From assembly GCA_052032335.1 (NCBI GenBank), contig JBPEWV010000145.1:6842-70841 (forward strand): a DNA stretch of 64,000 bases, in the 5' to 3' direction. Positions within the stretch are counted from its first letter, which is position 1, and every line of letters begins with the position of its first letter. Source of the stretch: Pleionea sp. (GTDB lineage: Bacteria > Pseudomonadota > Gammaproteobacteria > Enterobacterales > Kangiellaceae). The notes under the pieces were generated by a model that ran no database searches, had not been told where the DNA came from, and saw only the letters and a list, made by a program, of their open reading frames with translations. The position numbers and the translations under genes were made by a program. Below, one piece after another: positions 5,983 to 10,843 of the stretch.

Positions 5983-6849
5983 ATGATAGAAAGAATTACA
6001 AGACTATTGTCTCTACATGACTATACGCTGCGATTTTATTTAAATACGTTATTCGGATTGATTGGAATCTCGTTTGTACTTTGGATCACTTATACTAACT
6101 GGGGACCATTTAGAGAACAGTTACAGTTTTTAGACTATCTATACTTGGGAGCTGCTTTATTATCAGGAATATTATGCCATTTAATAATGGCTTATTACTT
6201 CTCGCTTATTGTCAATAATAATAAAAAGCCAGGCAAAGTGCAGTTCAAACTAGGAGTGAAACTATTCTTGATTAGCCAGCCTTCAAAGTATATTCCAGGA
6301 AAAATATGGCAGATATTACACCAAAGGTTACTGTCTAAGTCATTTTCTTTGAGAGAAGTTGCTTTAGCTAATATTCAATTTATGGCAGGTATAAGCTTTT
6401 TTATTTTAGCACTGAGCCTATGTATTATTTCATTACTAAATAGCTATTGGTACGCTCTTCTACTGAGCACTATATCATTTATCACGGTTCTAATTTACTT
6501 TAGATTTTCTTTAAAGCTCATTTTACCTTTCATTTCTGCGTGCTTTTTCTTAATTGGAAGTGGCTTGATAGTTCAGGGTTTAGGAGTTCATTTAAACTTC
6601 TTGCAGACAGCTAATTTAATTGCAATTTTTGGCTTGAGCTGGATACTGGGTACTATCGCATTCATTTTTCCTGCAGGTATTGGGTTACGGGAGTGGCTAA
6701 TAGTCTCTGTACCCACAACGATTCTTTATGATGTAGATCCTCAAGTTTTGGTAGTTTTCGCGGTATTTCTGAGATTGTGGCAAATTTCATACGAGTTATT
6801 GTGTTGGGGAGGGGTCCGTATTTTCACTTATTTTTATTCCAAAGAGTGA
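5983..6849 (+). CDS. Polytopic membrane protein of the lysylphosphatidylglycerol-synthase TM-region/AglD2-like putative flippase family
   Basis: About 8 hydrophobic segments with the motifs SQPSKYIPGKIW and FIFPAGIGLREW...LRLW. Family assigned by motif recognition. Confidence 0.7.
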   Translation: MIERITRLLSLHDYTLRFYLNTLFGLIGISFVLWITYTNWGPFREQLQFLDYLYLGAALLSGILCHLIMAYYFSLIVNNNKKPGKVQFKLGVKLFLISQPSKYIPGKIWQILHQRLLSKSFSLREVALANIQFMAGISFFILALSLCIISLLNSYWYALLLSTISFITVLIYFRFSLKLILPFISACFFLIGSGLIVQGLGVHLNFLQTANLIAIFGLSWILGTIAFIFPAGIGLREWLIVSVPTTILYDVDPQVLVVFAVFLRLWQISYELLCWGGVRIFTYFYSKE

Positions 6850-7414
6850 TAGTCCAAGGTAAAGGTGTCTTTACTTTAATCACAGTACCAATACAATTGA
6901 CCATATTAATAAATGACTTTGTCGACCAGTGATTAATATGCCCTGGAGTGTTGCCGAGAGAAGAAAGATACTTTAGCCTAGCAACGTTGAGAGCTCGCCA
7001 GATGGGCTCTCTAGGAACCGAAGTTATTACGTCACCTTTAGATACTCTAGAAAGCTCTTTTAATCCTTTAACTGGGTATTCTATATGCTCTAGAACTTCC
7101 AGGCAAAATACGATATCAAAATGATTACTCTCGAATGGAATATCGTAAATGGATGCTTGAGTAACAATAGCATTTGGAGCTCTTTTCTTAGTGTCACGAA
7201 CCAAATTCAAATCAATATCGATAGCATGAACACTAGAATGAGGGTAGTGTTGGCAGATTCTTTCTGTGCTAAAACCGTGACCACACCCTACCTCGAGAAC
7301 CTTAAGGCTTTTACTTGAAGGTGCTATAGAAAATACTTGGGCATAAAAGTTCTCAATGAGCTTTTTTCCCAATGCTCCTGTCTTGGTATACTTTTCTTCG
7401 AAATTCTCTTGCAT
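6824..7414 (-). CDS. Class I SAM-dependent methyltransferase
   Basis: VLEVGCGHG motif I, AID, and FDIVFCLEVLEHIE. Its start overlaps the GT2 stop codon (TAATG). Confidence 0.9.
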   Translation of the reverse strand: MQENFEEKYTKTGALGKKLIENFYAQVFSIAPSSKSLKVLEVGCGHGFSTERICQHYPHSSVHAIDIDLNLVRDTKKRAPNAIVTQASIYDIPFESNHFDIVFCLEVLEHIEYPVKGLKELSRVSKGDVITSVPREPIWRALNVARLKYLSSLGNTPGHINHWSTKSFINMVNCIGTVIKVKTPLPWTITLWNKNK

Positions 7415-8274
7415 TACTGTTTACTGTACTGCAATGAGTTAATCTGTTCGGAGACAAGTCCAATCAAAAAGACTATTATTGATGAGACCATTAATGTCGC
7501 CGACATATTGGTAAATCTTCCACTGTCTAGGTAAGTAATTAAGTAATTAAGTAACCCAAGCATAAAAAGTCCGAGACTAATTGGTGTAAAAAGTTTAAGT
7601 GGCGAATATAGAGTTCCAATCTTGAATATTATGACGATAAATCTAAACCCATCTTTCAATAAATTTATGTGGCTTTTTCCTACTCGTTTCAATACCTCTA
7701 TTTGTTCATATGCAACGGAGTAACCTGAACGAAAGAAAGCCATTGTGATGGTTGTGGGATAAGAAAAGCCGTTTGGTAGTAAGTGTAAAAATTCTTTGAA
7801 TTTTTTTGCGTCGACTACTCTGAGGCCAGAGGTTAAGTCTTCTACATTATGTTCAACTATTTTTGATGCTAACCAATTATAGAAGCTATTCGCGAGTTGC
7901 CGGAAAAAGCTTGCTTGTCCTTTACTGTCTCTCTTTCCAACAACCATGTCGAATCCGGTTTCAAATTTGGCAACTAATGCTTGGATATCTCTTATTTGAT
8001 GTTGGCCATCAGCATCCATAAATATGAGTGCATCTCCCTTAGCAGCTCTTGCCCCTGCTTTTATCGCAGCACCATTCCCTTTGGAGTATGGATGGTGTAT
8101 TACTTGAACAGAATACTTATCTAACAGCTCAGTCGTATTGTCCGTCGAGCCATCATTTACGATAATTATTTCCATGCTCGCGAAGTTAGAGAGTAGCTCT
8201 GGAACAAGACTCTGCAAAGATTCCGCTTCATTCTTTGCGGGTATAATTATGGAAAACAACTTTCGTGTTTTCAT
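7414..8274 (-). CDS. GT2 family polyprenol-phosphate glycosyltransferase (DPM1/GtrB-like) with two C-terminal TM helices
   Basis: IIIPAKNE, NDGSTD, GNGAAIKAG, FMDADGQH and DLTSGLR motifs; hydrophobic C-terminus. Confidence 0.9.
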   Translation of the reverse strand: MKTRKLFSIIIPAKNEAESLQSLVPELLSNFASMEIIIVNDGSTDNTTELLDKYSVQVIHHPYSKGNGAAIKAGARAAKGDALIFMDADGQHQIRDIQALVAKFETGFDMVVGKRDSKGQASFFRQLANSFYNWLASKIVEHNVEDLTSGLRVVDAKKFKEFLHLLPNGFSYPTTITMAFFRSGYSVAYEQIEVLKRVGKSHINLLKDGFRFIVIIFKIGTLYSPLKLFTPISLGLFMLGLLNYLITYLDSGRFTNMSATLMVSSIIVFLIGLVSEQINSLQYSKQ

Positions 8275-8490
8275 TCATTTAAATCCTGAGGTTCGCAAAA
8301 AACTGGAAGTTAATACTTTGGGTAAGTATCATTCAATAATATTGCTATCCAATTACACGATGAATATGAATACTGATTTGATTCTAACTGAGTTCTTGAA
8401 ATTTGCAAGGTCAGCTTAAAATTTCGGTTTCAATGAAACTCATTAGCACATCTTGAATTAAGTGGTTTTTATATTTCGTCTTGAATAATA

Positions 8491-10368: not shown

Positions 10369-10380
10369 TATTTAGCTCAT

Positions 10381-10405
10381 AAAAAAGGCCCCGACTTGGG
10401 GCCTT
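10381..10405 (-). terminator. Rho-independent terminator or attenuator after pilA
   Basis: AAGGCCCC-loop-GGGGCCTT hairpin followed by T6 on the minus strand. Confidence 0.85.
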
Positions 10406-10426
10406 CTCATATTTGTAACTTTTAAA

Positions 10427-10843
10427 TTATCGACAAGTAGCCGGTAAGTATCTTGCGTCAGAAGTTGAACTACAGTCCCAAGTAACAACTCCACTGGCTG
10501 CCAAAGTTGGGGTCAAAGTAATTACTACTGATTCTTCTGCACCCAAGTCAGCAGCAGTACCAGAGATAGTGATTGTACCGGTTGAGTTAACAGAGCCCGC
10601 AGACACGTAATCACCGTCTGTTGGAATTGTTAAGCCTGAACCAGAACCAGCTAAAGTGCCTTCTGCTTGAGCAAACTCGGATACAGCAGTCTTGGCATTT
10701 GCACCGGCTAGAAGTAACTCAGATACTTTCGCTCGAACGGTGTAATCCTGATAAGCAGGAAGAGCGATTGCAGCAAGAATACCGATGATCGCAACAACGA
10801 TCATAAGTTCGATAAGGGTAAAACCAGCGTTTGATCTTTGCAT
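10427..10843 (-). CDS. pilA: Type IVa major pilin
   Basis: [28 protein letters not shown] leader and a C-terminal disulfide D-region (C...C); GGAGA RBS. Confidence 0.97.

Follow-up and report, generated by a model that had tools for sequence, protein, structure and literature searches.

A pilA-linked cassette in Pleionea sp. as a candidate pilin O-glycosylation system pairing a GT-C/TPR protein with a GT2 lipid-phosphate glycosyltransferase

Bacteria use type IV pili to adhere, to move and to take up DNA, and phages use them as receptors. Here we describe a group of genes beside the gene for a major type IVa pilin, pilA, in a 64,000-nucleotide (nt) stretch of the genome of Pleionea sp. (contig JBPEWV010000145.1, positions 6,842–70,841 of the forward strand; hereafter the window). 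Four genes lie between pilA and pilB. They encode a candidate glycosyltransferase of the GT-C type that carries a TPR domain (GT-C/TPR), a GT2-family glycosyltransferase, an S-adenosylmethionine (SAM)-dependent methyltransferase and a polytopic membrane protein with a flippase-like fold, which we call memX. The cassette is likely, in our judgment, to specify a three-component periplasmic system for pilin O-glycosylation, a TfpW-like variant that would use a lipid-phosphate sugar made by the GT2 in place of D-arabinofuranose. The core of the system, namely pilin, GT-C/TPR protein and GT2, is very common, while the methyltransferase and memX genes are a minority add-on. This account builds on what can be observed directly in the genomes: the identities of the genes, the architecture of their products, synteny, co-occurrence, and presence/absence polymorphism at the locus.

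A widespread core of pilin, GT-C/TPR protein and GT2

Evidence for a functional link between the pilin and the candidate transferase comes foremost from gene neighborhoods. Scanning one genome per species gave 80 loci with a GT-C/TPR homologue, in Gamma- and Betaproteobacteria. Of the 69 loci with enough upstream sequence, 61 had a same-strand pilin gene no more than 1.8 kb upstream. A GT2 at least 50% identical to that of the window (52–63%) was found in 54 of 63, directly adjacent to the GT-C gene in 39. The pairing holds for whole genomes too: among 41 related genomes, GT-C and GT2 orthologues occupy an identical set of nine and occur in none of the others. Sampling at the level of the order gave GT-C in 20 of 401 genomes from the window's own order and in 81 of 401 from a neighboring order, one that contains a Marinobacter metagenome-assembled genome, with the GT2 present as well in 74 of the 80 checked. 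It is this synteny across 80 loci, together with the co-occurrence counts, that defines pilin, GT-C/TPR protein and GT2 as the core module.

Pleionea mediterranea (G003) and a member of another genus of the same family (G012) also have all four cassette genes between pilA and pilB. Relative to the window, the P. mediterranea proteins are 44% (GT-C), 73% (GT2), 53% (methyltransferase) and 32% (memX) identical. In five further relatives (G005, G006, G023, G037 and G038) a GT-C homologue directly follows pilA while the intervening genes vary; the conserved GT2 (52–62%) is linked to it in all of these except G006, where it lies on another contig, and G037 has two GT-C genes in tandem. Across the three genomes with the four-gene cassette the GT-C protein has diverged much more, at 36–44% identity, than the pilin (about 74–76%) or the GT2 (65–73%); judged by these sequence identities, the transferase is evolving faster than its presumed substrate and donor synthase. 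Tandem arrays are a wider feature of the family, with two to three GT-C/TPR paralogues following a single pilin gene or pilin pair in 18 of the 80 loci (L019, L034, L044 and L089 among them), an arrangement that may reflect successive sugar additions or different acceptor sites.

What the GT-C/TPR candidate looks like can be stated in some detail. Its AlphaFold2 (AF2) model (pLDDT 90.4, pTM 0.91) comprises about 11 membrane helices followed, from about residue 410, by TPR helices. The TPR part is the only region matched in Pfam and PDB sequence searches, and the remainder is without a Pfam, NCBIfam or PDB sequence match, so that the term GT-C, as we apply it to this candidate, describes architecture and motifs and has no database match behind it. 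Searches recovered 776 homologues of about 650 amino acids (aa); in 53 of them the residues D31-D32, R66-P67, K197-E198, D293 and E356-H-R-N-Y360 are invariant. The invariant aspartate pair, as F30-D31-D32, comes directly after the first transmembrane (TM) helix, and a proline-rich region of the family, with the consensus ...PxxxxxGLYHDD, has a nearly invariant tyrosine and an invariant proline.

Several of these residues have counterparts in TMTC1-4, the eukaryotic protein O-mannosyltransferases of the GT-C/PMT clan. In the TMTCs the motifs are M1 (DD, loop EL1), M2 (..YRP, EL1), M4 (KE, EL3) and M7 (ERxxY, EL5) (PMC7801869). By inspection rather than by any statistical measure, look-alikes occur in the same order and loops of the window protein, as FDD31-32 (M1), KRP65-67 (M2), KE197-198 (M4) and EHRNY356-360 (M7). 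The second extends beyond the RP pair to the pattern RP...SF.LN, KRP65-67 being followed in the family consensus by xSMLSFALN, which may be compared with RPLCVLTSFRLN in TMTC1. The two families also have in common an 11-TM domain followed by a C-terminal TPR domain. They differ in that the window protein has no DUF1736 or PMT match, is bacterial, and would act on pilin rather than on cadherin. At the margins of the family, one distant relative (profile E 6e-14) reaches PMT_2 just below threshold (8e-5; 23.3 versus 26.1 bits), another matches DUF6056, and some members have been automatically named 'protein O-mannosyl-transferase' by JGI. On architecture and motifs, then, the protein is a candidate pilin O-glycosyltransferase of GT-C type, resembling TfpW and the TMTCs.

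The GT2 is easier to place. Its best PDB matches are ArnC (3e-15), the dolichyl-phosphate mannose synthase (DPMS) of P. furiosus (9e-15) and GtrB (sll0501; 2.5e-14). ArnC, the archaeal dolichyl-phosphate mannose synthase and GtrB all load a sugar onto polyprenyl phosphate. Because the window protein resembles these three and shares their pair of C-terminal TM helices (residues 228–275), we assign it as a polyprenyl-phosphate glycosyltransferase. Its sugar is not assignable, since no NCBIfam equivalog came near its cut-off: AglJ scored 104 of the 325 bits required, PpgS 93 of 370, PgfS 86 of 500 and ArnC 65 of 529. A D-arabinofuranose donor of the kind used by TfpW can be set aside, given that the ALO domain (PF04030, DprE1) found no match in the window's genome while a control search matched Corynebacterium; without an ALO/DprE1-type protein, the TfpW route to this sugar is absent. 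The use of ALO as a general divider between D-arabinofuranose-type and GT2-type loci was dropped as too unspecific, ALO being found in 31 of the 80 genomes and never beside the GT-C gene.

The methyltransferase has no TM segment and is cytoplasmic; its orthologues in G003 and G012 occupy the same position at 47–53% identity. For memX, a direct search of Pfam (PF03706 included), NCBIfam and PDB sequences gave no match. A three-sequence profile nevertheless drew in 2258 relatives, and 44 of 60 sampled match PF03706, the best at 1.3e-15. Foldseek with the AF2 model (pLDDT 87.7) returned MprF structures as its top four matches (7duw, 9goe, 7f47 and 9j8q), each with probability 1.00 and a TMq of 0.51–0.56 over about 300 columns; the next match had a probability of 0.23. 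The motifs KYIPGK(I/V)W and FPAG(I/L)G(L/V)(R/K)E are conserved. Its relatives and its modeled fold place memX in the MprF flippase-domain family (PF03706/PplT/UPF0104), as a divergent member and a candidate flippase for a lipid-linked sugar. Stand-alone PF03706 proteins are the predicted flippases, predicted only, of hexSDF (PMC10128005) and gpgSDF (PMC12713373), and in archaea the MprF flippase domain occurs fused to GT-A domains. An alternative placement of memX among TfpX/TfpY/TfpZ-type accessory proteins was rejected, because proteins of that type combine three TM helices with a periplasmic beta domain (PMC11841053), whereas memX is all-helical, polytopic and MprF-like.

The methyltransferase and memX genes also tend to travel together. 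Methyltransferase genes are present in four of the seven loci with a memX-like gene and in 10 of the other 73 (Fisher P = 0.016, uncorrected for phylogeny), which hints at a methyltransferase and flippase sub-module. The two genes are directly adjacent in three unrelated loci (L089 7829–9360, L036 12122–13635 and L032 3340–4808), and in L089 the methyltransferase adjoining the memX-like gene is 47% identical to that of the window.

An earlier account of this DNA, made from the letters alone (the sequence-only reading), had named the same four gene products. Those identities hold, with the provisos that GT-C is a label from architecture and motifs and that the flippase-like character of memX comes by way of transitive homology and fold. 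The account also tied the cassette to the pilin, and credited it with its own donor synthesis; the first is strengthened by the synteny and the second by the shared distribution of GT-C and GT2. In calling the module complete it went too far, as no nucleotide-sugar genes are present, and in calling it self-contained it took as special to this genome a core that is very common elsewhere, only the methyltransferase and the flippase-like gene (the latter in 7 of 80 loci) being unusual. TfpW had figured there as an analogy; by architecture, locus position and DD motif, it is the closest known system.

Composition and exchange of the locus

The genes of the cassette have GC fractions of 0.347–0.381, as against 0.427 for pilB, 0.434 for pilC, 0.497 for nadC, 0.473 for aceE and 0.441 for the window, and a sliding profile falls to a trough of 0.31–0.38 between about 5500 and about 10250. 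In relatives, the contents of the pilA–pilB junction vary widely. In four genomes of the same genus (G001, G002, G004 and G007) and in three from other genera pilA simply abuts pilB, the two being separated by about 90–410 bp (tblastn coordinates), and pilB is 72–88% identical in all relatives regardless of what lies between it and pilA. The pilin behaves differently: that of the window shares 74–76% identity with its counterparts in the two genomes that have this cassette as well, but 30–53% with those of congeners that lack it. Since pilin identity tracks the cassette and pilB is conserved throughout, pilin allele and modification genes move as one unit. We infer that the unit is exchanged when recombination takes place in nadC and pilB, which flank it and are conserved. 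A mobile element as the means of insertion was rejected in favor of such recombination, there being no tRNA genes and no convincing flanking repeats at the cassette edges. The group I–V pilin alleles of P. aeruginosa follow the same pattern, in which a pilin allele moves with its modification genes.

These comparisons bear on most of what the sequence-only reading said of the locus. Its four low-GC genes between pilA and pilBC are there, at 0.35–0.38 against 0.43–0.50 in the flanks, and the exchangeability that it proposed is supported by the pilA–pilB intervals of relatives, with empty junctions in four congeners and different islands in others. Co-orientation with pilBC applies to pilA and three of the cassette genes, and not to memX, which is on the plus strand. 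The interval that it took for the cassette, 5983–10843, includes pilA, and its picture of an insertion behind a fixed pilA gives way to one in which the exchanged unit includes the pilin allele.

Other relatives carry other genes at this junction. For instance, G009, of the same family, has a different island of 12 kb (L026 3243–14971) with nucleotide-sugar genes. Besides two large proteins without a Pfam match (578 and 606 aa), the island encodes a cytidylyltransferase/kinase fusion, a DegT aminotransferase, an epimerase, a HAD hydrolase and a GT2, as well as a bona fide PF03706 protein (2.1e-48). From its gene content, it resembles a further glycosylation system tied to pilin, with a flippase candidate of the MprF type. 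In G021, also of this family, an O-acyltransferase of the MBOAT family and a 354-aa protein without a Pfam match are encoded between pilA and pilB (L030 12660–15111), and may serve at this hot spot to acylate pilin or some other surface molecule. In the expanded GT-C locus of G023 (L017 9478–18927, about 10 kb) the conserved GT2 is joined by a DegT aminotransferase, a sulfotransferase, three methyltransferases, a GT4 and a membrane protein of 314 aa that bears a PAGIGxxE motif, a gene content that suggests pilin glycans tailored with amino, sulfo and methyl groups.

A proposed route and its alternatives

How might the cassette products work together? In the route that we consider likely, the GT2 would move a sugar, probably a hexose or N-acetylhexosamine, from a nucleotide sugar to undecaprenyl phosphate at the cytoplasmic face of the membrane, and the methyltransferase coupled to it would probably methylate the sugar ahead of export. 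The MprF-flippase-like memX would then probably carry the lipid-phosphate sugar to the periplasmic face, where the GT-C/TPR enzyme would place it on Ser or Thr residues of PilA before pilus assembly, with catalysis by the DD motif of the first periplasmic loop and with the periplasmic TPR domain holding the pilin. A strong terminator after pilA would keep the enzymes low relative to the pilin, and pilin allele and modification genes would be exchanged together through the nadC and pilB flanks. The pilA–pilB island of G009, unrelated but likewise pairing a GT2 with a PF03706 protein, is a parallel in favor of this route.

The closest known system is TfpW, which acts on the group IV pilin of P. 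aeruginosa Pa5196 and P. paraeruginosa PA7. TfpW, whose gene lies directly after pilA, is described as a 646-aa protein that has 11 TM helices and a periplasmic TPR domain and depends on a DDx motif in loop 1; its authors also listed pilA-linked homologues in several genera (10.1101/2020.04.19.049825). The GT-C/TPR candidate, at 625 aa, resembles it in being encoded directly after pilA, in having about 11 TM helices and a C-terminal periplasmic TPR domain, and in the DD(x) motif that its first periplasmic loop carries. The two systems are further alike in the logic of a lipid-phosphate monosaccharide donor, in belonging to the part of the pilin locus where accessory genes vary, and in having a terminator after pilA. 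Where they part is in the donor and the accessory genes. TfpW uses D-arabinofuranose, made by DprE1/DprE2-type genes located elsewhere, whereas the cassette includes a GT2 and its genome has no ALO/DprE1-type protein; moreover, the cassette lacks TfpX and adds a methyltransferase and an MprF-flippase-like gene. TfpW, for which a flippase is not known, has been proposed to flip its own donor.

More distant systems illuminate single features. The combination of GT2, flippase and GT-C recurs in GtrA/GtrB/Gtr*, ArnC/ArnEF/ArnT, CsbB/GtcA/YfhO and the streptococcal Pgf system, and the window GT2 is most similar to ArnC, GtrB, DPMS, AglJ and PgfS. The cassette departs from all of these in its flippase candidate, which is of the MprF/PplT type (PF03706) rather than GtrA, SMR or MATE, in having a protein as presumed acceptor, and in the coupling of a methyltransferase to the GT2; the list of open reading frames (ORFs) contains no GtrA-like ORF between 5700 and 10900. 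The pilin-modifying enzymes TfpO/PilO and PglL are often encoded after pilA as well, in the same variable accessory region, but are built on a Wzy_C fold and transfer undecaprenyl-diphosphate oligosaccharides from O-antigen pathways, not a lipid-monophosphate sugar. Pfam found no Wzy_C match among the four cassette proteins. HexSDF of C. difficile and GpgSDF of P. aeruginosa similarly combine a stand-alone UPF0104/PF03706 protein with a glycosyltransferase and a sugar-tailoring enzyme; unlike the cassette, they glycosylate glycerolipids, have neither a GT-C partner nor a pilin link, and contain a deacetylase in place of the methyltransferase. A literature search found no published description of the GT2-coupled form, nor of a methyltransferase or an MprF-type flippase in a TfpW-like context.

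A number of observations weigh against the proposed route. Searching the PDB with a profile of the TM domain gave no match to any solved GT-C structure, and no Pfam GT-C family (PMT, PMT_2, DUF1736 and similar) was matched by the window protein or its 53 homologues, which hit TPR families only. Alignment by hhalign to a 26-sequence ArnT alignment reached a probability of 5.7% (E 0.0067), and to E. coli ArnT alone 2%; in the former, K197-E198 falls in register with the lysine of the ArnT TKG motif. The list that Foldseek returned for the full-length model was taken up entirely by TPR proteins. Likeness to TfpW comes from the published description of that protein rather than from sequence comparison, and no named protein from Pseudomonas, Teredinibacter, Azotobacter, Kingella or A. 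venetianus appeared in the homologue lists or the locus scan. The YX6PFX7P motif of TfpW (periplasmic loop 4) is only partly kept, as Y276-x6-P283-F284, with H292 at the place of the final proline. The scarcity of memX-like genes among the loci implies that such systems do not in general need a flippase of their own, and memX may have a different role. Nor does pilin composition discriminate, the Ser and Thr content of cassette-linked pilins (0.26–0.32) overlapping that of unlinked ones (0.19–0.30). Lastly, the identity of the sugar, the sites that accept it, all of the biochemical steps and any contribution to phage or antigenic escape are inferred.

Three alternative explanations can be put to the same evidence. 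In one, the GT-C/TPR enzyme serves general protein O-glycosylation: it would act on several proteins of the periplasm or cell surface, minor pilins perhaps among them, and its gene would only happen to stand beside pilA. Eukaryotic TMTCs do have many substrates (PMC7801869). Likewise a TPR is a generic protein-binding module, and the loci with two or three tandem GT-Cs could signify several acceptors or linkages. Kus and colleagues are said to have reported in 2008, however, that TfpW is restricted to its cognate pilin, and a general enzyme would sit uneasily with a pilin adjacency that is near-universal and with a pilin allele that co-varies with the cassette; on balance this explanation seems unlikely. 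Still less probable, in our estimation, is a Gtr-like modification of a glycan such as lipopolysaccharide O-antigen, capsule or another polymer, for which the position beside pilA would reflect a recombination hot spot and nothing more. The pilA–pilB junction does take up unrelated genes, including the sugar-gene island of G009 and the MBOAT genes of G021, and the set of GT2, flippase and GT-C is the classical logic of O-antigen seroconversion (PMC11127046). A neutral hot spot, though, would not explain why the GT-C gene stands behind a pilin gene in two proteobacterial classes, and the ORF list includes no O-antigen genes near the cassette. Gtr-type GT-Cs, to our knowledge, are also without TPR domains.

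A further alternative splits the cassette: much as in HexSDF or GpgSDF, a membrane glycolipid would be made and flipped by the GT2, the methyltransferase and memX, leaving the GT-C/TPR protein as a separate pilin assembly factor or as a user of another donor. The association between memX-like and methyltransferase genes fits this division, as does the encoding of stand-alone PF03706 proteins with glycolipid synthases in C. difficile hexSDF (PMC10128005) and P. aeruginosa gpgSDF (PMC12713373). Against it, GpgS is a GT4 rather than a GT2 (PMC12713373), the best structural relatives of the window GT2 are polyprenyl-phosphate transferases, the GT2 has exactly the distribution of the GT-C and is in most cases encoded right beside it, and the invariant DD, KE and EHRNY residues argue that the GT-C candidate is a catalytic protein. 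We think a split of this kind highly improbable. What makes all three alternatives less likely is that a pilin gene is almost always adjacent, that the candidate has a TPR domain and that GT-C and GT2 co-occur exactly.

If pilin glycosylation by the GT-C/TPR enzyme is the function of the cassette, it extends a known principle and does not introduce a new one. TfpW is, as far as we know, the only GT-C pilin glycosyltransferase to have been studied, and its sugar is an unusual one of mycobacterial type. The cassette would add a much commoner relative, tied to a GT2 lipid-phosphate sugar synthase and accompanied here by a methyltransferase and an MprF-type candidate flippase. As a compact set of four genes plus a pilin, it could be rebuilt in a laboratory strain, could define the donor, flippase and acceptor rules of this enzyme family, and might find use in glycoengineering. 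A bolder proposal, to which we give rather little credence at present, is that the GT2-coupled form is the main and probably older TfpW-like type in Proteobacteria, with the methyltransferase and MprF-type protein forming a sub-module that methylates and flips an undecaprenyl-phosphate sugar. Were that true, memX would be the first flippase of the MprF/PplT family to act on a polyprenyl-phosphate sugar, and would be a candidate for the flippase still missing from TfpW-type systems. A role in phage defense or antigenic variation would be suggested purely by analogy with P. aeruginosa, where pilin glycans alter antigenicity and block pilus-specific phages (10.1101/150227); PADLOC defense models gave a generic methyltransferase-domain match only.

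Layout and expression signals

Coordinates of the locus, from nadC to pilC, are collected in Table 1.

Table 1. Features of the pilA–pilB region and its flanks, in window coordinates.
Feature	Position	Strand	Basis or remark
nadC	11017–11886	-	Upstream conserved flank; tblastn 49–69% identity beside pilA in all relatives examined
Sigma-54-like -24 element, TGGCAC-N5-ATGA	10892–10906	-	Sequence reading; single match
pilA, major type IVa pilin, 138 aa	10427–10843	-	Pfam Pilin 4.7e-17, N_methyl 3.8e-10
Intrinsic terminator hairpin	10376–10408	-	RNA fold; stem recovered by separate scan
Candidate GT-C/TPR protein, 625 aa	8491–10368	-	ORF; TPR matches; AF2 model
AT-rich spacer between GT-C and GT2 genes, 216 bp	8275–8490	-	Sequence
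GT2 polyprenyl-phosphate glycosyltransferase, 286 aa	7414–8274	-	Pfam Glycos_transf_2 5.9e-33
Class I SAM-dependent methyltransferase, 196 aa	6824–7414	-	Methyltransf_11 3.5e-19
memX, polytopic membrane protein, 288 aa	5983–6849	+	PF03706 relatives; AF2/Foldseek
pilB	4004–5707	-	TIGR02538 PilB 1.9e-266; downstream conserved flank
pilC	2730–3998	-	T2SSF and PilC models; downstream conserved flank

Within the cassette, the start codon of the methyltransferase gene overlaps the stop codon of the GT2 gene by one base, an arrangement that suggests translational coupling. The memX and methyltransferase genes are convergent, with an overlap of 26 bp at their 3' ends. The spacer that separates the GT-C gene from the GT2 gene is possibly an internal promoter; sigma-70-like promoter matches across the cassette, this spacer included, were not commoner than in shuffled sequence.

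PilA itself has a class III signal, an N-methylation motif and a C-terminal disulfide loop, and Ser and Thr make up 31% of its globular part. Its gene is separated by 58 bp from the GT-C gene on the same strand, and the terminator that occupies this gap has the form AAGGCCCC-loop-GGGGCCTT followed by T6. The hairpin has a predicted energy of -20.3 kcal/mol (z = -3.9), and none of 200 shuffled sequences was as stable. The terminator probably holds expression of the accessory genes well under the level of the pilin; a terminator between pilin and accessory genes has also been described in other bacteria (PMC11841053). On the other side of pilA, the sigma-54-like -24 element lies about 50–65 nt 5' of the start codon, with a -12 part that is a poor match. 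As a lead only, this element would fit control of pilA by PilR and RpoN.

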